Of a stretch of 20,379 nucleotides of DNA, positions 8,932-19,955 are shown piece by piece. The stretch is taken from IMG/VR virus record IMGVR_UViG_2706794690_000015, one strand, 5' to 3'. The DNA is from a virus. Taxonomy: Duplodnaviria; Heunggongvirae; Uroviricota; Caudoviricetes. The position numbers and the translations under genes are program-made. Numbering within the stretch: position 1 is the first letter of the stretch; each line of letters starts with the position of its first letter. The notes below the pieces were generated by a model, which saw only the letters and a list, made by a program, of their open reading frames with translations, did no database searches and was not told the DNA's origin.

Positions 8932-9789
8932 ATGCTGTTTGTGCTTATTCTAAGCCACCGGGCAGCATCATACGGGGCAATTATGGCCGCATTACCATAC
9001 ATGCAACTGTACATAGCTGATTACCTGGCTGACACCATGCATTTGTCAGCAGAGGAGCATGGTGCGTATTTGTTGCTGATGTTCAATTACTGGCAAACAG
9101 GAAAGCCAATACCTAAAAACAGGCTGGCAAAAATTGCCCGTCTGACTAACGAGCGATGGGCTGATGTTGAACCATCCTTGCAGGAGTTTTTTTGCGATAA
9201 CGGCGAGGAATGGGTGCATCTTCGGATTGAGGAAGATCTGGCATCAGTCAGGGAAAAATTAACCAAAAAATCAGCCGCAGGAAAAGCATCTGTTCAGGCC
9301 AGAAGAAGCAGAAAGGAAGCAGATGTTCAAACAAAACAAGAGAGAAATTTAACAGGTGTTCAAACAGATGTTGAAGTGGTGTTTGAACATGATGTCAACA
9401 CAAAGGCAACTAATAAAGATACAGATAAAGATCTAAAAACAGATCCCCCCCTAAATCCCCCCCGGGGGAATCGAGGTGTCAAAAAGTTTGACCCTCTGGA
9501 TATTGCTTTGCCGAACTGGATTTCTGTCTCGCTTTGGCGTGAGTGGGTTGAATTTCGCCAGGCATTGCGAAAACCGATTCGAACGGAGCAGGGCGCTAAC
9601 GGGGCGATACGGGAGCTGGAAAAATTCCGCCAGCAGGGTTTTTCACCTGAGCAGGTGATTCGACACAGCATCGCCAATGAATACCAGGGCTTGTTCGCGC
9701 CGAAAGGTGTTCGACCTGAGACGTTACTCCGACAGGTTAACACCGTCTCGTTACCGGATAGTGCGATCCCGCCAGGCTTCAGGGGGTAA
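8932..9789 (+). CDS. ydaU: YdaU-like replication-initiation protein (DUF1376, O-like), 285 aa
   Basis: Position upstream of the DnaC-like loader; recognised as Rac YdaU. Confidence 0.8.
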   Translation: MLFVLILSHRAASYGAIMAALPYMQLYIADYLADTMHLSAEEHGAYLLLMFNYWQTGKPIPKNRLAKIARLTNERWADVEPSLQEFFCDNGEEWVHLRIEEDLASVREKLTKKSAAGKASVQARRSRKEADVQTKQERNLTGVQTDVEVVFEHDVNTKATNKDTDKDLKTDPPLNPPRGNRGVKKFDPLDIALPNWISVSLWREWVEFRQALRKPIRTEQGANGAIRELEKFRQQGFSPEQVIRHSIANEYQGLFAPKGVRPETLLRQVNTVSLPDSAIPPGFRG

Positions 9790-9795
9790 CTGACC

Positions 9796-10542
9796 ATGAA
9801 AAATATTGCGACAGGCGACGTTCTTGAACGTATCCGCAGACTGGCCCCGTCACATGTAACCGCGCCATTCAAGACGGTAGCGGAGTGGCGCGAGTGGCAA
9901 CTTTCCGAAGGCCAGAAACGTTGTGAGGAGATCAACCGTCAGAATCGTCAGTTGCGGGTGGAAAAAATTCTGAATCGCTCTGGCATCCAGCCATTGCACC
10001 GCAAATGCTCGTTTTCGAATTACCAGGTGCAGAACGAAGCGCAGCGATACGCGTTGAGTCAGGCGAAATCCATCGCTGATGAACTGATGACCGGGTGTAC
10101 AAATTTTGCGTTCAGCGGAAAACCTGGTACCGGGAAGAACCACTTAGCGGCAGCTATCGGGAATCGCCTGCTGAAAGACGGTCAGACAGTGATTGTGGTT
10201 ACCGTGGCTGATGTTATGAGTGCCCTGCACGCCAGCTATGACGATGGGCAGTCAGGCGAAAAATTTTTGCGGGAACTATGCGAAGTGGATCTGCTGGTTC
10301 TTGATGAAATTGGCATTCAGCGCGAGACGAAAAACGAGCAGGTGGTGCTGCACCAGATTGTTGATCGCCGGACAGCGTCGATGCGCAGCGTGGGGATGCT
10401 GACAAACCTGAACTATGAGGCCATGAAAACATTGCTCGGCGAGCGGATTATGGATCGCATGACCATGAACGGCGGGCGATGGGTGAATTTTAACTGGGAG
10501 AGCTGGCGTCCGAATGTCGTCCAGCCAGGAATTGAGAAGTAA
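9796..10542 (+). CDS. ydaV: DnaC/IstB-family helicase-loader ATPase (YdaV-like), 248 aa
   Basis: Walker [16 protein letters not shown] and Walker B LLVLDEIG visible in the translation. Confidence 0.85.
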
Positions 10543-10564
10543 TTTTTACCGGGAGGAAATTTTT

Positions 10565-11326
10565 ATGGAGACTGTTTTTGACGCACTGAAAGCAATGGGA
10601 AAAGCCACATCCATAGAACTTGCTGCGCGACTTGATATCAGTCGTGAAGAAGTGCTGAACGAACTATGGGAACTGAAAAAAGCTGGTTTCGTTGATAAAA
10701 GCGCGTACACCTGGCGTGTGGCTGATAACAACGTTCAGCAGGAACAGCCAATGCAGGCAGAACTGCCGGAAGAAACCACCACGGCAACTGTAGTGAAAAT
10801 CTCAGAGTGCGATTTAACCGCGACGATTGAACAACGCGGACCACAAACGGCGGATGAACTGGCTACGCTGTTCGGTACAACATCCCGCAAAGTTGCTTCA
10901 ACGCTGGCAATGGCAATCAGCAAAGGACGCCTGATTCGCGTAAACCAGAACAGTAAATTTCGTTACTGCATGCCGGGCGATAATTTACCAGCAGAGCCGA
11001 AAGCTGCATCGGTAGCGGAAACTGATGGTAAAGCCTTTCCTCAGCCAGCCGGTGTTGCGTTACCAGTACAGGAAGCGGCAACACAGGAAGATATTAAAAC
11101 AGAAACTGTGGCGGACATTGTGCAGTCGCTGCCATCGTTTACTGAAACGCAAGCGGATGACCTAGTTTTACCATCGCTGCATATGGCAAACCGCGAACTG
11201 CGTCGGGCGAAAAATCATGTCCAGAAGTGGGAGCGAGTCTGCGCCGCGCTGCGGGAGCTGAACAAGCACCGGGATATTGTCCGACAGATTGTCGATTCCT
11301 CCAGTCGTATTGTGTCGGAAAAGTGA
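10565..11326 (+). CDS. ydaW: YdaW-like phage protein, apparently full length
   Basis: GGGAGG RBS about 8 nt before ATG 10565 ([13 protein letters not shown]...). Intact here, whereas I recall ydaW in K-12 Rac as truncated. Confidence 0.6.
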
Positions 11327-11341
11327 TTGCCGGAGGCGCTT

Positions 11342-11758
11342 ATGGCAAAAGTTTTTACACAGGAAGAGCGTGAAAAAATTAAGGAGCAGGTTGTTGAGTT
11401 GGTACGCCAGAGTGGGCGCGAGACGTTAAGGCAACTGGAGGCCAAGACAGGTGCGACAAGATATCTGATGAGCATTCTTGCCAGAGAGTTGGTTGCCAGT
11501 GGCGATGTATACAACTCTGGCTATGGGTTATTCCCGTCTGAACAGGCTCGTAAGGATTGGAAAAACGCCCGCAAAAAACTATCCAGGGCAAAGGTGAAAA
11601 AAACGGTTGTGGTTGATCCTGACCTTATCTGGTCATTACCAGACGGAGAAATACGCCGCTATGACAGGCGTCAGAACATAATCTGTCGCGAGTGCCGGAA
11701 GAGTGAAGTTATGAAACGTGTACTGGCATTTTATCAAGGAAATCTTCGGTATTTATAG
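11342..11758 (+). CDS. Hypothetical phage protein with C-terminal CxxC, about 138 aa
   Basis: GGAGG RBS before ATG 11342 (MAKVFTQEEREKIKEQ...). Family not recognised. Confidence 0.5.
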   Translation: MAKVFTQEEREKIKEQVVELVRQSGRETLRQLEAKTGATRYLMSILARELVASGDVYNSGYGLFPSEQARKDWKNARKKLSRAKVKKTVVVDPDLIWSLPDGEIRRYDRRQNIICRECRKSEVMKRVLAFYQGNLRYL

Positions 11759-11896
11759 ACGTTACTAGATCAAAGAGCATTAGTTCATATGTAAATTGAC
11801 ATTTTTCTGGCACAGGGGAGAGCTAGCGTGGTTGTCCGCTTTGTGCCAATAGCGGACATTGCTGGCTCATGGTATGTTAGTTTAAGGAGGCAGGTT

Positions 11897-12919
11897 ATGC
11901 CCTGTATTTCGCTGTGGTATAATAGTTGCGCAATTGATACAAGGGAGCGTTACATCGTGAAAATTGTTTTCGAGGTTAATGGAAAGAAAGTTCCACTAAA
12001 ATCTTTAAAATACATAAGCAAAAAAGATCAACTCGAAGTAATGAAAAACTGGTTCTTTGAAAACTTTGAAGATCCGGCAAATGCTTGTCCGTATGAAAGT
12101 AGAGAAGGTGGCTATGCTTACATATATGGCGGGCCGTATGATGCGAGCGAAGAACTACAATCCATCTTCGGTCAATATGTTAAATCTGAGTATATTGAGG
12201 AATTAGTAGATGAATTACAAACACAATGTTTTGACTGGTCTGGAAACTCAAATAATATAGATGATTGGTACGATGATGATATCTACGACGCTGTAACGTC
12301 TTCCGGTAATCCGTATTTAAAATTCATTGATAATATCGATAAAATAAAAAAACTTGCAAAAGATAAAACTGAACAACAGCAAAAAAACCACTTGCTTAGT
12401 TTGCTCTACACGAATGTTATTACAGCTTTGGAAACGCTTTATGTTGAGCTATTCATTAATTCTATAGAGAAAGATGATGTCTACATAGCCAATTGTATAG
12501 AAAAAGGTAAGACTGAATTTAAAGTAAGCAAAGATATTGCTGCGTTGCCTTTCAAGGGTGAACCCATCGAGAAAATTAGGGGAGAGCTAATCAGGTCAAT
12601 CAAGGAACACTTGATCAGTGCAAGCTGGCATAGCACTAAAAAGGTAATCGACCGCTATGAAGCTACATTCGATATAAAAGTACAAAAAGACTGTCCGATA
12701 GAAGCTATTGAATTGGCAACCCTCAATCGAAATCACTTAGTGCATCGTGGTGGAAAGGATAAAGAAGGGAACCTCGTAGTGATTACAGACCAGGATCTTG
12801 AAACGCTGATTGAAAATGCATCGAACCTGGCAATTATGCTCTACAACAGTTTAAATGTAGCAACGAATAAAACCACCATTTTGCAACCAGATGACAAACC
12901 GTTCATTCATGAATTTTAA
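11897..12919 (+). CDS. Cargo protein A: hypothetical, C-terminal HEPN-like R-x4-H motif (candidate RNase toxin/defence effector)
   Basis: AT-rich by eye. AAGGAGG RBS 6 nt before ATG 11897; alternative starts GTG 11828 and GTG 11957. Motif LNRNHLVHRGG at nt 12728-12745 in a helical-looking C-terminal region. Confidence 0.6.
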   Translation: MPCISLWYNSCAIDTRERYIVKIVFEVNGKKVPLKSLKYISKKDQLEVMKNWFFENFEDPANACPYESREGGYAYIYGGPYDASEELQSIFGQYVKSEYIEELVDELQTQCFDWSGNSNNIDDWYDDDIYDAVTSSGNPYLKFIDNIDKIKKLAKDKTEQQQKNHLLSLLYTNVITALETLYVELFINSIEKDDVYIANCIEKGKTEFKVSKDIAALPFKGEPIEKIRGELIRSIKEHLISASWHSTKKVIDRYEATFDIKVQKDCPIEAIELATLNRNHLVHRGGKDKEGNLVVITDQDLETLIENASNLAIMLYNSLNVATNKTTILQPDDKPFIHEF

Positions 12920-12934
12920 TAGCGCAGGTCATAC

Positions 12935-13936
12935 ATGGATATTCGCACACGAAAGACAAAATTTTTAGAGTCGTTAGATTCAACTGAAGTGATACGCAAA
13001 GCAGTAAGTCTCGCTATAGATTGCATTATTGATAATCATAATAGTAATGAAGATACCCCCTTAGTTATTACCAGCTATGATGATCTCTGTAGAATCCAGG
13101 TGCTAAATTATGTACAGGAGTTTTGCGAAGCTGCATTCCCTGATATGGATGAATATTACTTTAGTCCTAACATACTTCGCATCAACGGCAAGACTAGTGA
13201 AGAAGCTTGTATTAACTTAATTAAACTCTTAAGAAGTACAAAAGGCATGCTATTCTGGTCCGATGCCCCATCGTGGTTCGCTAGCCTCCCCGACGGATTA
13301 TTCCATGTTGTTAACATTGATCAAAAAATCGTTACTCGCGGCCTTAATAAGAAAAACTCTAAGCCGACAATAATCAATAAAGATTACAGTGTAGATACAC
13401 TACTATCAGAGCTATTTTTGAATGGCGCACACATGGAGCAACCCAACGTACACAACGTTTCTGAGGGAAACATGAAGTTCTATGATGAATGCCATGCTGG
13501 ATTAATCAGACCAATACCCGCTCCAATAGGCGCGTCATACGATGAAGAGATCACAATTAATTCTCCAGATTGGCAAAAGCTCGCGTGTGTAGCTTTACGC
13601 CGCTATCAGTCGAAGGAATGTCATGACGGAATGCAATGGGATACAACCGATCATGGTTGGACTGATGTAATCGCGTATCCATTCGTCGAAGAAATACAAT
13701 CAATGGATAATAGTGGTTATCGACAATGTTTAGTTGGGCTGGTCACAATAAACAATTCAAATGCAAATTCTCCGTACCTATCTACCGTTTGGATACATCC
13801 ATTTTATCGCAGGAGAGGGTTATTAAGTAAGTTATGGCCAAAATTACAAGAGTTATATGGAAGTAACTTCGAAATTGAGCGACCTAATGAAAATATGAAA
13901 GCATTTCTGAAAAGTGCGAAACACGCAGATTACTAA
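12935..13936 (+). CDS. Cargo protein B: hypothetical, C-terminal GNAT acetyltransferase-like motif
   Basis: Starts 15 nt after A; same AT-rich composition. VWIHPFYRRRGLLSKLWPKLQELY near nt 13808 resembles the GNAT acetyl-CoA-binding motif A. Confidence 0.6.
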   Translation: MDIRTRKTKFLESLDSTEVIRKAVSLAIDCIIDNHNSNEDTPLVITSYDDLCRIQVLNYVQEFCEAAFPDMDEYYFSPNILRINGKTSEEACINLIKLLRSTKGMLFWSDAPSWFASLPDGLFHVVNIDQKIVTRGLNKKNSKPTIINKDYSVDTLLSELFLNGAHMEQPNVHNVSEGNMKFYDECHAGLIRPIPAPIGASYDEEITINSPDWQKLACVALRRYQSKECHDGMQWDTTDHGWTDVIAYPFVEEIQSMDNSGYRQCLVGLVTINNSNANSPYLSTVWIHPFYRRRGLLSKLWPKLQELYGSNFEIERPNENMKAFLKSAKHADY

Positions 13937-14490
13937 TTTATGAATCAGTCTGTGGAGTTAGGGTTGGTGTGAACAAGTAGGGTAAGAGCCTCAACGTGAT
14001 GCTATGCCGACCTGCTCCCTGAGAATTCACACAGAAGGCTGCTAGCAATGTCTGCAGATCGCTCAAAGCGGACTAAAATGTTGGCTTGTTTCTGACTTAG
14101 AGCATTTAAGGAAGTGCTGGTGGTGACTGGTTGTTGTGTTCCATTTCTACAGAATAAAATCACAGAAACTATACCCAATAGTTGTATTGAATCACTGACG
14201 AGACAGCCTCATATTTATCAGGACTGGTGTGCGTCTAATACAGGGGGTTGTCGTGCTGGTTCTCAAATGTGCGCTGGCTATTGCGGCTGTAATGGCAATT
14301 TATTGTCTTGCTGTTGTTCTTATGGAGCGGCTTTCTGATTGATTACATACTGGCTAGAAAAAAGGTGTTACCTTGGTTTATCTTTGTCCGGCAAGGTGCG
14401 CTCATTAATCTTAAGTAAATTTATTGCTCAAGTATTCAGATTACTTCTTATGGTTGAAGTCTCCTGTCAATGTAGAACCAATATATTTAC

Positions 14491-14527
14491 AAAAATGAGA
14501 CCCGTCGGGGATAGCCCTGCCGGGTCT
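14491..14527 (-). terminator. Rho-independent terminator downstream of the YeaR-like gene
   Basis: Stem AGACCCG (14498-14504) / CGGGTCT (14521-14527); A-run 14491-14497 gives a U-tract on the minus-strand transcript. Confidence 0.45.
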
Positions 14528-14556
14528 GACTGTTAAAGCATTTTTAATATGATCAT

Positions 14557-14895
14557 CTATTTTTTGGTGCTATAGACTTTTTCGCCCGAAAAGTCTGGAG
14601 CGACCCAAAAGTTAATATTAAACTGAGCATCATCGCTTAGTTCAACACGGTGCCAGTATTGTGGTGGGCTTGTTGCAAAAGCGCCAGCATTAATGACTAC
14701 TTTTATCTCCGGTTCAGTAGCATTCTCATCAGTAAAACCATAATATGTTACAGTGCCTTCCATTACGCACAACTGCCCAAAAACACCTGCTGCTGTATTA
14801 TGATGTGTTAATAACGCTGAAGGTACGTTCTCTTTTGTGAAGAACGGAGTTGAGCGTTTGATTACCCAATCTTTAGGAATTCTCTTGTGTGTCAT
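14557..14895 (-). CDS. DUF1971 (YeaR-like) cupin-type protein, about 112 aa from MTHKRIPKDW
   Basis: Resembles E. coli YeaR as I recall it (RSTPF..., ...FNINFWVAP). GGAGGAGGTGG RBS before ATG 14895. Its upstream region runs into the N gap. Confidence 0.7.
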   Translation of the reverse strand: MTHKRIPKDWVIKRSTPFFTKENVPSALLTHHNTAAGVFGQLCVMEGTVTYYGFTDENATEPEIKVVINAGAFATSPPQYWHRVELSDDAQFNINFWVAPDFSGEKVYSTKK

Positions 14896-14957
14896 AACCA
14901 CCTCCTCCAAAACATGCATTAAAAATGCATCTTTTGGAGGGTTATGTCAAGCTGTTA

Positions 14958-15127
14958 NNNNNNNNNNNNNNNNNNNNNNNNNNNNNNNNNNNNNNNNNNN
15001 NNNNNNNNNNNNNNNNNNNNNNNNNNNNNNNNNNNNNNNNNNNNNNNNNNNNNNNNNNNNNNNNNNNNNNNNNNNNNNNNNNNNNNNNNNNNNNNNNNNN
15101 NNNNNNNNNNNNNNNNNNNNNNNNNNN
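14958..15127. other. Run of 170 N (gap or masked sequence)
   Basis: Literal n characters in the sequence. Confidence 1.
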
Positions 15128-15636
15128 ATTTTCCCAGGATACCTTTACTGTGTATATAAATAAATTATATACGCATAAATAATGTAAAGGCGTCCTTTTA
15201 GATATATCTTATCAAATGTTAATGACTTGAGTGGGAAATATGATTCCAGCAACTTATCATGTGGCTACTTTATAAAAATAATGCCCATATAAAACAACAA
15301 GCGAAAAGGATTACGGATAAAAAAGGAGCGAGATGTGCGAACTTGTTATTTTCCATGTTTAACCACCTTAAATAATTGATGATGACGGGATGATTGCATC
15401 TGTAATGCTTTTATTGAAATGTTATGATAAAAAAGAACTTTTGCATAACATTAAAATGTAATTTATCTAATCGTTTTTAATAATAAGTGTCGTATTTCTA
15501 TCCTTGTACCAGCTATTTGATATGTAGTGTTTGTTCATGCTATGTGGGGCTTTACACCATAGCCAGTTTATTTATACTTTATTCGTCAGCCTGAACAACT
15601 GGCATCTGCTGCGCTGCGCCATCGAGAGATTGAGAA

Positions 15637-17518: not shown

Positions 17519-18050
17519 GGGCTGGTTTATTGTATGCCAAATGATTATTAAAAAGGTTGTGTTAATAACAAGATCCGAAATAATATGCCTGCATATTTTT
17601 ATCTTGCTTATATTCTGCATATTGTGCATAGCAGGCTCATCCCTGCAATCAAAACTGTATGATGAGTATTTTTTGTTTTCCTTTTTTCCAGTCATCTGAT
17701 GATGACCTGCTTCTTTTTAATCCGGATCGACATCAGTTTTTTAAGATAATTCCTGCGAGTTATATGCATAAATGCCACAAACTCCGCATTTTATGTGGTT
17801 GGGAGTTGCCGGGCGCGCAGTGAGTTTGCTAAGAAAACTCCTGCATGGTGAATCCCCCTGTGCGGTGGGGTGATACCATTAACCTTTTCTGTCGCCGACA
17901 GGTATCACGAACATTTTGTTCACCGGGAGGCACCCGGCACCATGCACTTCAATAGATTCTCTCCACATTATGGATATTCTTTCAGAATATCCCACGCAGA
18001 CTTTGTGTAAATGTTAACAAATGTGCGTTTTATTTGATCTGATTCGCTGT

Positions 18051-19717: not shown

Positions 19718-19955
19718 NNNNNNNNNNNNNNNNNNNNNNNNNNNNNNNNNNNNNNNNNNNNNNNNNNNNNNNNNNNNNNNNNNNNNNNNNNNNNNNNNNN
19801 NNNNNNNNNNNNNNNNNNNNNNNNNNNNNNNNNNNNNNNNNNNNNNNNNNNNNNNNNNNNNNNNNNNNNNNNNNNNNNNNNNNNNNNNNNNNNNNNNNNN
19901 NNNNNNNNNNNNNNNNNNNNNNNNNNNNNNNNNNNNNNNNNNNNNNNNNNNNNNN
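19718..19955. other. Run of 238 N (gap or masked sequence) covering endolysin C-terminus and Rz start
   Basis: Literal n characters; too short to hold the expected remainder of the endolysin plus the Rz start, so probably not length-preserving. Confidence 1.

Follow-up and report, generated by a model that had tools for sequence, protein, structure and literature searches.

What does a two-gene island lodged in a lambdoid prophage do, and do its two genes act together? The question arises from a pair of neighboring genes, here called A and B, in a 20,379-nucleotide stretch of DNA from a member of the Caudoviricetes (IMG/VR record IMGVR_UViG_2706794690_000015; the whole stretch is referred to below as the window). 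An original prediction had described them as an accessory cargo island coding for a HEPN-like and a GNAT-like protein, possibly a defense locus but not one corresponding to a named system. Our analyses show that the A-B pair is already known: it is the defense system DS-33, published and experimentally tested. They also lead us to consider it very probable that the island is a prophage-borne anti-phage system in which A is the effector and B an accessory protein.

A two-gene island in a variable prophage slot

Positions 11760-13940 of the window have a GC content of 38.3%, as compared with 49.8% in the upstream replication genes (8932-11758) and 49.1% in the downstream segment 15637-17065, and GC3 is 0.35-0.36 in the island versus 0.47-0.61 in the flanking genes. 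Both open reading frames lie on the + strand, A ending with its stop at 12919 and B starting with the ATG at 12935, separated by a 15-nt intergenic spacer (12920-12934, + strand) that is equally long in cassettes from Serratia, Aeromonas and the contig L076. In an identical prophage annotated in RefSeq, the island lies between the replication genes and a DUF1367/DUF1364/DUF1133 late-regulator region, and the related phages Tritos and Evi carry other cargo at the same junction. The element hosting the pair is a Rac-like E. coli prophage, and the pair occupies a variable slot in it. The original description of two co-oriented genes 15 nt apart, richer in AT than their surroundings and placed between the replication genes and the nin/Q region, is thus borne out by these coordinates, compositions and annotations, and the separate acquisition that it proposed is supported by the low GC content and the different cargo in Tritos and Evi. 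Neither gene is a chance open reading frame, as both have many homologs and evolve under purifying selection (dN/dS of 0.09-0.16 for A and 0.21-0.46 for B). An Rfam search of the island retrieved no RNA families inside it, and searches of A and B with PADLOC, NCBIfam and PHROGs provided no functional name, the PHROGs matches consisting only of two self-families of unknown function.

A hairpin-forming palindrome, GTCCGCT-N10-AGCGGAC (11834-11857, + strand), read directly from the sequence, lies where the variable slot begins on its left side. Alignment of upstream regions showed that it is common to the lambdoid backbone of phages Tritos and Evi and to the enterobacterial copies of the cassette; megablast matches to Tritos, Evi and 204576 span 11761-11861. 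Downstream of it, we propose the extended -10 element TGGTATAAT (11915-11923, + strand) as a candidate promoter for an A-B operon. It is kept as TGnTAyAAT in the window and in the Serratia and Aeromonas cassettes, and reads TGATAATAT in L076. A promoter and terminator scan detected no promoter in the leader of A and no terminator after B; the extended -10 element escaped this consensus scan because a good -35 is absent, and it surfaced through the alignment of cassettes. A Shine-Dalgarno sequence, AAGGGAG (11941-11947, + strand), lies 9 nt before a GTG codon at 11957. Since the homologs, the RefSeq protein (WP_014639476.1) and the published construct all begin at this GTG, we prefer it as the start of A. 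The 340-aa protein first proposed, starting from the ATG at 11897, probably includes 20 codons that do not belong to the gene: this ATG is not kept in Aeromonas, and the Shine-Dalgarno sequence and the extended -10 element are kept in every A-B cassette. With the GTG start, the motif residues originally numbered R278 and H283 become R258 and H263.

Identity with the published system DS-33

A is identical to WP_014639476.1 over its 320 residues, and B matches the published DS-33B (WP_000354965.1) at 332 of 333 positions. DS-33, with the working name “GNAT”, was found with DefensePredictor (DeWeirdt et al., bioRxiv January 2025; Science 2026; PMC13092281). Its source, a strain of the E. coli reference collection, and the window share the gene order, the 15-nt spacer and the upstream region. 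The single difference between the B proteins concerns residue 289: the tested construct carries a rare leucine allele, present in 31 contigs, whereas the window carries the common proline, present in at least 1000. The original prediction had itself set a match to an already named system as grounds for its refutation, so that its claim to novelty is gone. Neither accession was found in the main texts of the papers; the match lies in the supplementary tables. The main text of the DefensePredictor paper never names DS-33, which is covered by plaque data and domain labels with no discussion of mechanism or evolution, and both of its proteins are listed as defensive and replicated (PMC13092281).

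In the published experiments, DS-33 in MG1655 conferred 100- to 100,000-fold protection against T7, T3, Bas26 and Bas67; the construct was based on the promoterless pSC101 vector pCV1 and included no more than 200 bp of the native upstream sequence (PMC13092281). The EOP data, given in Table S7 as log10 protection in two replicates, are 3.8 and 2.6 for T7, 3.3 and 2.4 for T3, 4.0 and 2.0 for Bas67, and 5.0 and 5.9 for Bas26 with the wild-type system, T5 not being listed (PMC13092281). The mutants were assayed on five phages only, T7, T3, Bas67, Bas26 and T5: deletion of the HEPN gene brought protection to about 0 on all of them, and the R258A substitution to 0-0.8 (PMC13092281). Upon deletion of the GNAT gene, protection was 4.8 and 4.3 for T7, 3.3 and 3.3 for T3, 4.0 and 3.3 for Bas67, and 5.0 and 4.9 for Bas26, with T5 again not listed (PMC13092281). 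The proposal of a defense locus is therefore upheld by 2-5 logs of published protection that depend on the very arginine flagged at the outset. By contrast, the interdependence of A and B that had been implied is not supported, as full defense persists after deletion of the GNAT gene and either gene is frequently found on its own. The dispensability of the GNAT protein is nevertheless not fully settled, because the tested B carries the rare P289L change at an invariant residue.

A HEPN protein and a GNAT-fold partner

Gene A (DS-33A, 320 aa, WP_014639476.1; 11957-12919, + strand) codes for a HEPN/RES N-terminal domain 1 followed by a RiboL-PSP-type HEPN domain. The N-terminal alpha+beta domain (HEPN_RES_NTD1, approximately residues 1-115; 11957-12300, + strand) bears the motif WFxxNFEDP...PYESxEGGYxYIxGGPYDA, and the HEPN helical-bundle domain covers approximately residues 120-308 (12314-12880, + strand). 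The R-N-H-L-V-H motif noticed originally is indeed encoded at 12728-12745 (+ strand), where it constitutes the predicted HEPN catalytic motif R258-N-H-L-V-H263, with R264 as the next residue. R258, H263 and R264 are invariant in an alignment of 67 sequences reaching down to 26% identity, and defense is lost in the published R258A mutant. The Pfam profile HEPN_RiboL-PSP (PF18735) matches 35 of the 67 aligned homologs (best E 7e-11) and does not match the A protein of the window at E<=1. HEPN_RES_NTD1 (PF18870) recognizes 63 of the 67 at E<=0.01 and A itself with 22.2 bits (E 1.9e-4), under the 27.4-bit gathering score. The HEPN assignment of A consequently derives from the family-level matches, the motif and the fold, and not from a direct profile match of the window protein. 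A displays the four-helix up-down bundle of the HEPN fold, and the closest structural relatives of its HEPN domain include HepT toxins (8xdj, 7ae2, 5yep). Thus, the prediction of a HEPN fold with an R-x4-H motif is supported by the invariant motif, the profile matches of homologs and the structural relatives. Other mobile elements encode fusions in which HEPN_RES_NTD1 precedes PIN_8 or a different C-terminal region. Profile searches of the A and B families against PDB sequences yielded nothing meaningful.

Gene B (DS-33B, 333 aa, WP_000354966.1; 12935-13936, + strand) joins an N-terminal domain of unknown family to a C-terminal GNAT fold (approximately residues 190-333; 13502-13933, + strand, with an approximate boundary); conservation within the family is highest in this domain. 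Its AF2 model has a pLDDT of 90, and Foldseek relates it to HAT1, ESCO1, MYST and small GNATs (RibT, AAC, SSAT) with E values of about 1e-4 to 3e-3; the probabilities are mostly 0.94-1.0 and the matches listed are acetyltransferases throughout. The model seems to end after alpha4, such that the usual last GNAT strands may be missing. With Pfam Acetyltransf_1, B reaches 19.9 bits, slightly under the cut-off of 20.7, and 18 of 46 homologs match. The beta4-alpha3 loop H288-P-F-Y-R-R-R-G295 (13796-13819, + strand) corresponds to the “motif A” region that would bind the CoA pyrophosphate, and the string originally likened to this motif, FYRRRGLLSKLW, is present at residues 290-301. H288, P289 and R292 are invariant in the 46 aligned B homologs. 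Compared with the motif A pattern Q/R-x-x-G-x-G/A, the loop reads R292-R-R-G295-L-L, lacking the final G/A, and G295 is only the majority residue. The GNAT fold proposed for B is accordingly sustained by Foldseek and by the profile matches, but its motif A is only partly canonical. We regard B as a predicted acyltransferase-like protein with a GNAT fold.

Distribution and evolution of the cassette

Among 5426 complete E. coli genomes, ~205 (~4%) have the A-B pair. The cassette is also intact in Serratia, Aeromonas and one further contig, L076, in unrelated genomic contexts, with identities as low as 77.5% for A and 74% for B and the 15-nt spacer unchanged. Escherichia, Serratia and Aeromonas exchange it as a complete unit. 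The impression from a tblastn survey that the pair was confined to near-identical copies was rejected, given the intact cassettes found in Aeromonas and L076 at 74-87% identity. The Aeromonas cassettes adjoin SIR2, TIR and STALD genes. A 138-aa gene upstream of them was considered as a third cassette gene of DUF977 type and discarded, as tblastn revealed no similarity to the DUF977 gene of the window.

Outside this cassette, A occurs without B in most of its family. Solo copies of A are found between housekeeping genes (76% identity), in the P2 defense hotspot, where an ApeA_NTD1 protein is the neighbor (75%), and in further phage slots, and all viral contigs at <=74% identity have A without B. 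Conversely, B occurs without A throughout the deeper B clades (identities of 39-70%). These solo B genes belong to accessory regions, with HigBA-like, restriction-enzyme and conjugation genes as neighbors. In Rahnella and Mangrovibacter, A has suffered an internal deletion, the leader is retained and B is intact, with a dN/dS of 0.27-0.46. The existence of a cross-genus cassette with identical spacing, together with the purifying selection on B, argues that B serves the pair.

Relationship to other systems

Type II GNAT toxins such as TacT, AtaT and ItaT resemble B in having a GNAT fold and in being encoded on mobile elements beside a stress or defense gene. In TacAT-like GNAT/RHH type II toxin-antitoxin systems, a small GNAT toxin of ~160-180 aa is adjacent to an RHH/DUF1778 antitoxin. 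DS-33 does not belong to them, as B has 333 aa including an N-terminal domain of ~190 aa; the cassette contains no small antitoxin open reading frame of the RHH/DUF1778 kind and no such Pfam match. In addition, the best structural matches of B are protein acetyltransferases of HAT1, ESCO1 and MYST type, unlike the small type II GNAT toxins, and B alone, in contrast with these, is not reported to be toxic.

Likewise, the pair is not a type VII HepT/MntA system (5yep, 7ae2, 8xdj). The partner is there an essential minimal nucleotidyltransferase that modifies the HEPN toxin and is encoded upstream, whereas in DS-33 it has a GNAT fold, is encoded downstream and is dispensable; cells deleted for it are viable and defend themselves, and most A homologs have no such partner. 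HepT has ~130 aa, as opposed to the 320 aa of A with its extra N-terminal domain. PD-T4-2 (Vassallo et al. 2022) contains a B protein with a RiboL-PSP-HEPN domain, the same HEPN type as in A, and HHblits in the DefensePredictor paper linked A to this protein with 96% probability over 55% of A (PMC13092281). A differs from it by its HEPN_RES_NTD1 domain and its partner gene, and the PD-T4-2 models of PADLOC-DB 2.0.0 matched neither B, nor A, nor any of 66 aligned A homologs (at E<=0.01 for the A homologs). A functional analogy may exist with Tha of Staphylococcus aureus prophages, which, as A would be, is a prophage-carried HEPN effector sufficient alone and presumably triggered by a phage cue (PMC11087260). 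Tha is activated by tail proteins and its N-terminal domain differs from that of A (PMC11087260).

A probable effector and its proposed accessory gene

According to the explanation that we favor, the cassette would be a moron with its own promoter just upstream of A, probably the extended -10 proposed at 11915-11923. The effector would be A, in which the C-terminal RiboL-PSP-type HEPN domain is a predicted metal-independent RNase acting, presumably on an RNA target, through the R258-x4-H263 site that the published work shows to be required for defense. The HEPN/RES N-terminal domain 1, a module that recurs before different toxin domains (HEPN, PIN_8, RES), most likely keeps the nuclease inactive, detects infection, or does both. 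Activation upon infection by T7, T3, Bas26 or Bas67 would then lower plaque formation by 2-5 logs, whether through abortive infection or because phage RNA is attacked directly. B, which travels with A in one sub-clade and appears not to be needed for the measured defense, might be a mild negative modulator of A or have its own separate function.

It is conceivable, if rather unlikely, that A and B are unrelated accessory genes stacked in one cassette, B having an A-independent function such as defense against other phages, anti-defense, or small-molecule or protein modification. The largely independent phyletic and genomic distributions of the two families speak for this possibility, as do the persistence of B under purifying selection after the deletion of A in Rahnella and Mangrovibacter and the neighborhood of the solo B genes. 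However, a spacer fixed at 15 nt and a single candidate promoter imply that A and B are expressed together, and B alone, in the HEPN deletion, provided no protection against T7, T3, T5, Bas26 and Bas67, a result obtained with the L289 allele and these five phages. Moreover, the DefensePredictor score of B is 1.08 log-odds for a cut-off of 4 (PMC13092281).

A second alternative, which we hold to be improbable, is that the pair works in a toxin-antitoxin-like manner, with B acetylating A, or the RNA or protein target of A, and keeping it quiet until infection. This would recall the type VII HepT/MntA systems, where the partner AMPylates the HEPN toxin, and HepT toxins, close structural relatives of the HEPN domain of A, are controlled by covalent modification. 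Several observations would fit: the joint movement of A and B as one cassette across genera with an unchanged spacer; the loss of A with retention of B in two lineages, a loss in the direction that a toxin-antitoxin pair would tolerate; and the published data, in which protection with the GNAT gene deleted equaled or exceeded that of the wild type in nine of ten phage-by-replicate comparisons, with gains of +1.0 and +1.7 log for T7 and of 0 and +1.3 for Bas67. Yet this apparent gain could stem from polarity or altered expression caused by the deletion, B may already be impaired in the tested P289L allele, the GNAT-deleted strain is viable and forms lawns, and A and B are each found without the other across much of their families. 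An equally doubtful, more specific version makes B a catalytic brake on the HEPN effector via acetylation, with its apparent dispensability understating its role owing to the P289L change beside the CoA-binding loop. If so, a clear role in regulation or in setting the phage range would be seen with the common P289 allele of the window, and the lineages that deleted A and retained B would carry orphaned “antitoxins”. To our knowledge, no HEPN system uses acetylation-based control of its nuclease. Finally, although HEPN proteins can be generally toxic, it is very hard to believe that the island is no defense locus in its native prophage and that the plasmid phenotype is an artefact of mild HEPN toxicity slowing the host, considering that protection is phage-specific (strong for T7, T3, Bas26 and Bas67, weak or absent for T5), was replicated, and was conferred by a vector of low copy number in which the native upstream region was present, and that homologs reside in recognized defense hotspots and islands.

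Implications

As DS-33, the locus has already been catalogued and experimentally validated, so that its value as a discovery is low; a reader guided by the sequence only nonetheless singled out a genuine defense system, including its predicted catalytic arginine. Beyond the published study, our analyses describe a mobile two-gene unit in one sub-clade, each gene being autonomous elsewhere; they reveal at least two clean deletions of the HEPN gene that left the GNAT gene intact; and they indicate that the conclusion on the GNAT gene was drawn from a minority allele in which an otherwise invariant residue is changed. The remaining interest of this system lies in what the GNAT protein does in DS-33.

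Genomic context of the A-B cassette

The window is a Rac-like lambdoid prophage of Escherichia coli. Its stretch 11760-13940 matches strain FORC_081 at 100% identity; in the chromosome of that strain, the prophage adjoins ttcA and carries intR, xisR, ralR, recET, kilR and sieB together with ydaSTU-type immunity, replication and lysis genes. As the original prediction had described, two + strand ORFs occupy this stretch: gene A, coding for a HEPN-like protein, ends at 12919 and gene B, coding for a GNAT-like protein, spans 12935-13936, leaving a spacer of 15 nt. The AT-richness noticed by eye was borne out by GC content (38.3% in 11760-13940 versus 49.8% in the upstream replication genes and 49.1% in the downstream late-regulator genes) and by GC3 (0.35-0.36 in A and B versus 0.47-0.61 in the flanks). 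The related phages Tritos and Evi match the 100 nt directly upstream (11761-11861) and then carry entirely different genes, implying that A-B sits in a variable cargo slot.

A palindrome, GTCCGCT-N10-AGCGGAC (11834-11857), lies exactly where homology to Tritos, Evi and 204576 stops and the cargo starts. It is kept in enterobacterial cassettes, not in those of Aeromonas, and may act as a terminator or operator, or mark a recombination boundary. Low GC content (about 40%) extends beyond gene B across 13937-15636, which is probably further cargo of the same slot. Besides a DUF1971 gene (14557-14919, - strand), no convincing ORF was found in this region, and the corresponding region of Tritos and Evi holds hok/mok-type genes. 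Two runs of masked bases occur at 14958-15127 (170 bases) and 19718-19955 (238 bases), the first hiding part of the AT-rich sequence that follows the cassette. Rfam searches also detected the RalA antitoxin sRNA opposite ralR (1557-1735, 225 bits) and the sRNA STnc100 upstream of the TolA-like and lysis genes (17813-17999, 87 bits).

Protein A, a HEPN protein with a modular N-terminal domain

Protein A had been read as 340 amino acids from ATG 11897, which is probably wrong. The RefSeq call is 320 amino acids from GTG 11957, 66 homologs align from this position onward, and the published protein is the 320-amino-acid form (PMC13092281). The upstream alignment of all A-B cassettes agrees, since it conserves an extended -10 element, TGGTATAAT (11915-11923), a Shine-Dalgarno sequence (11941-11947) and the GTG, whereas ATG 11897 lies upstream of the extended -10 and is not conserved in Aeromonas. 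With this start, the HEPN motif residues, initially numbered R278/H283, become R258 and H263; the motifs quoted for both proteins are present where they had been placed.

Protein A has a HEPN fold, as predicted, with an invariant predicted catalytic motif. The window protein scores 22 bits against the Pfam HEPN/RES N-terminal domain 1, below the cut-off of 27.4; at the family level, 63 of 67 aligned homologs match this domain and 35 match HEPN_RiboL-PSP (best E 7e-11). R258, H263 and R264 are invariant in homologs down to 26% identity, as are E159 and W224-H225, and the alignment-based AlphaFold2 model is confident (pLDDT 89). The N-terminal domain is modular: other mobile-element proteins combine it with PIN_8 nuclease domains, or with a different C-terminal part that has a GHNxPP motif and ends in a hydrophobic tail. 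It stands behind PIN_8 in the first kind of fusion and, in many viral contigs, precedes the uncharacterised GHNxPP region; examples of these fusions are L064 (4996-6282), P0116 and L048-L066. The GHNxPP proteins may be a further effector class using the same putative sensor module.

Protein B, a GNAT-fold protein

Protein B has a GNAT fold, although only part of the predicted motif A holds. Its Pfam GNAT score (19.9 bits) is just under the cut-off of 20.7, and 18 of 46 homologs match the profile. The structure model is confident (pLDDT 90), and the Foldseek PDB matches listed for its C-terminal domain are all acetyltransferases (HAT1, ESCO1, MYST, RibT, AAC, SSAT; E 1e-4 to 3e-3, probability mostly 0.94-1.0). 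In the motif-A loop, H288-P-F-Y-R-R-R-G295-L-L, residues H288, P289 and R292 are invariant in the 46 homologs, G295 varies and the G/A that closes the canonical motif is absent. Residues 1 to about 190 gave no family match.

The pair corresponds to the published defence system DS-33

The original prediction recognised no named system in this pair. Accession searches of paper texts found no mention of it, the only match being in the supplementary tables of the DefensePredictor study by DeWeirdt et al., where WP_014639476.1 and WP_000354965.1 form DS-33, working name ‘GNAT’, entered as defensive and replicated and never named in the main text (PMC13092281; preprint January 2025). The phage challenge and arginine mutation proposed in the original prediction had thus already been published, with protection found and lost in R258A (PMC13092281). 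For DS-33, a promoterless low-copy vector in MG1655 carried the genes and no more than 200 bp of their native upstream DNA, and Table S7 gives log10 protection for two replicates per construct and phage (PMC13092281). Wild-type values are 3.8/2.6 on T7, 3.3/2.4 on T3, 4.0/2.0 on Bas67, 5.0/5.9 on Bas26 and 0.8/0.1 on T5; on these five phages, they fall to about 0 upon deletion of the HEPN gene and to 0-0.8 in R258A (PMC13092281). Deletion of the GNAT gene leaves 4.8/4.3, 3.3/3.3, 4.0/3.3, 5.0/4.9 and 1.7/0.5, respectively (PMC13092281), implying that defence needs the HEPN protein and its arginine but not the GNAT protein. That this protection is an assay artefact appears very improbable.

Window A is identical to the published protein, and window B differs at one residue, P289 instead of L289. 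P289 (codon at 13799-13801) occurs in all 24 close copies retrieved, and an exact-sequence look-up placed the window allele on at least 1000 contigs, compared with 31 for L289. P289 lies in the motif-A loop, whose established role in GNAT enzymes is to bind the pyrophosphate of CoA. Given the invariance of P289 and the rarity of L289, the B protein tested may have been partly inactive. Deletion of the GNAT gene nevertheless equalled or exceeded wild type in nine of ten Table S7 comparisons. A mildly negative effect of B could account for this, and so could a simple expression artefact.

Distribution and evolution of the pair

Of 5426 complete E. coli genomes, about 205 carry both genes as a pair. 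Cassettes beyond E. coli keep the 15-nt spacer and the same putative promoter, Shine-Dalgarno and GTG elements. They occur in Serratia (A 98%, B 95% identical), in Aeromonas (A 86-87%, B 78-79%) and on a further contig (A 77.5%, B 74%). Those of Aeromonas lie on relaxase-bearing elements, next to SIR2, TIR and STALD genes. Relatives of A stand among other defence-type genes in loci L081 (1338-2699 and 3001-3945), L068 (7093-8963) and L071 (6212-7293); for the Aeromonas A-B cassettes, these neighbours are TIR, SIR2/STALD, and SIR2 plus cREC_REC genes.

Each gene also occurs alone. Solo A is found between housekeeping genes (76% identity) and in the P2 hotspot from gpA to ogr/portal, adjoining an ApeA_NTD1 protein (75%), and viral contigs with A at 74% identity or less all carry A alone. 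Solo B occurs at 70%, 68%, and from 62% down to 39% identity in varied accessory contexts. In Rahnella contaminans (L004, 5816-6066) and Mangrovibacter (L075, 3885-4066), the cassette leader runs straight into the final 60-80 nt of A, and the B gene behind it (86% and 91% identical, respectively) is intact. This arrangement indicates internal deletion of the HEPN gene in two lineages. The dN/dS values (0.09-0.16 for A, 0.21-0.30 for B, 0.27-0.46 in the A-deleted lineages) imply purifying selection on both genes.

A model for the cassette

As others have shown, the cassette defends, and defence requires A and R258. We propose that transcription would be driven by the extended -10 promoter and that A would be an RNase kept inactive until infection, with its N-terminal domain as a putative sensor or lock. 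B would be accessory, and would either dampen A or have an independent function. This accessory reading overlaps with the possible, if doubtful, alternative that A and B are independent genes stacked together; solo copies of both exist, and the cassettes retain a constant spacer. Acetylation-based, antitoxin-like control of A by B seems unlikely, given the protection that persists upon deletion of B.

The observation is confirmed and its original biological interpretation was largely right; as this locus has been published as DS-33, it is not a new system. Within one sub-clade the pair moves as a cassette; elsewhere each gene is autonomous, and the pairing is facultative.
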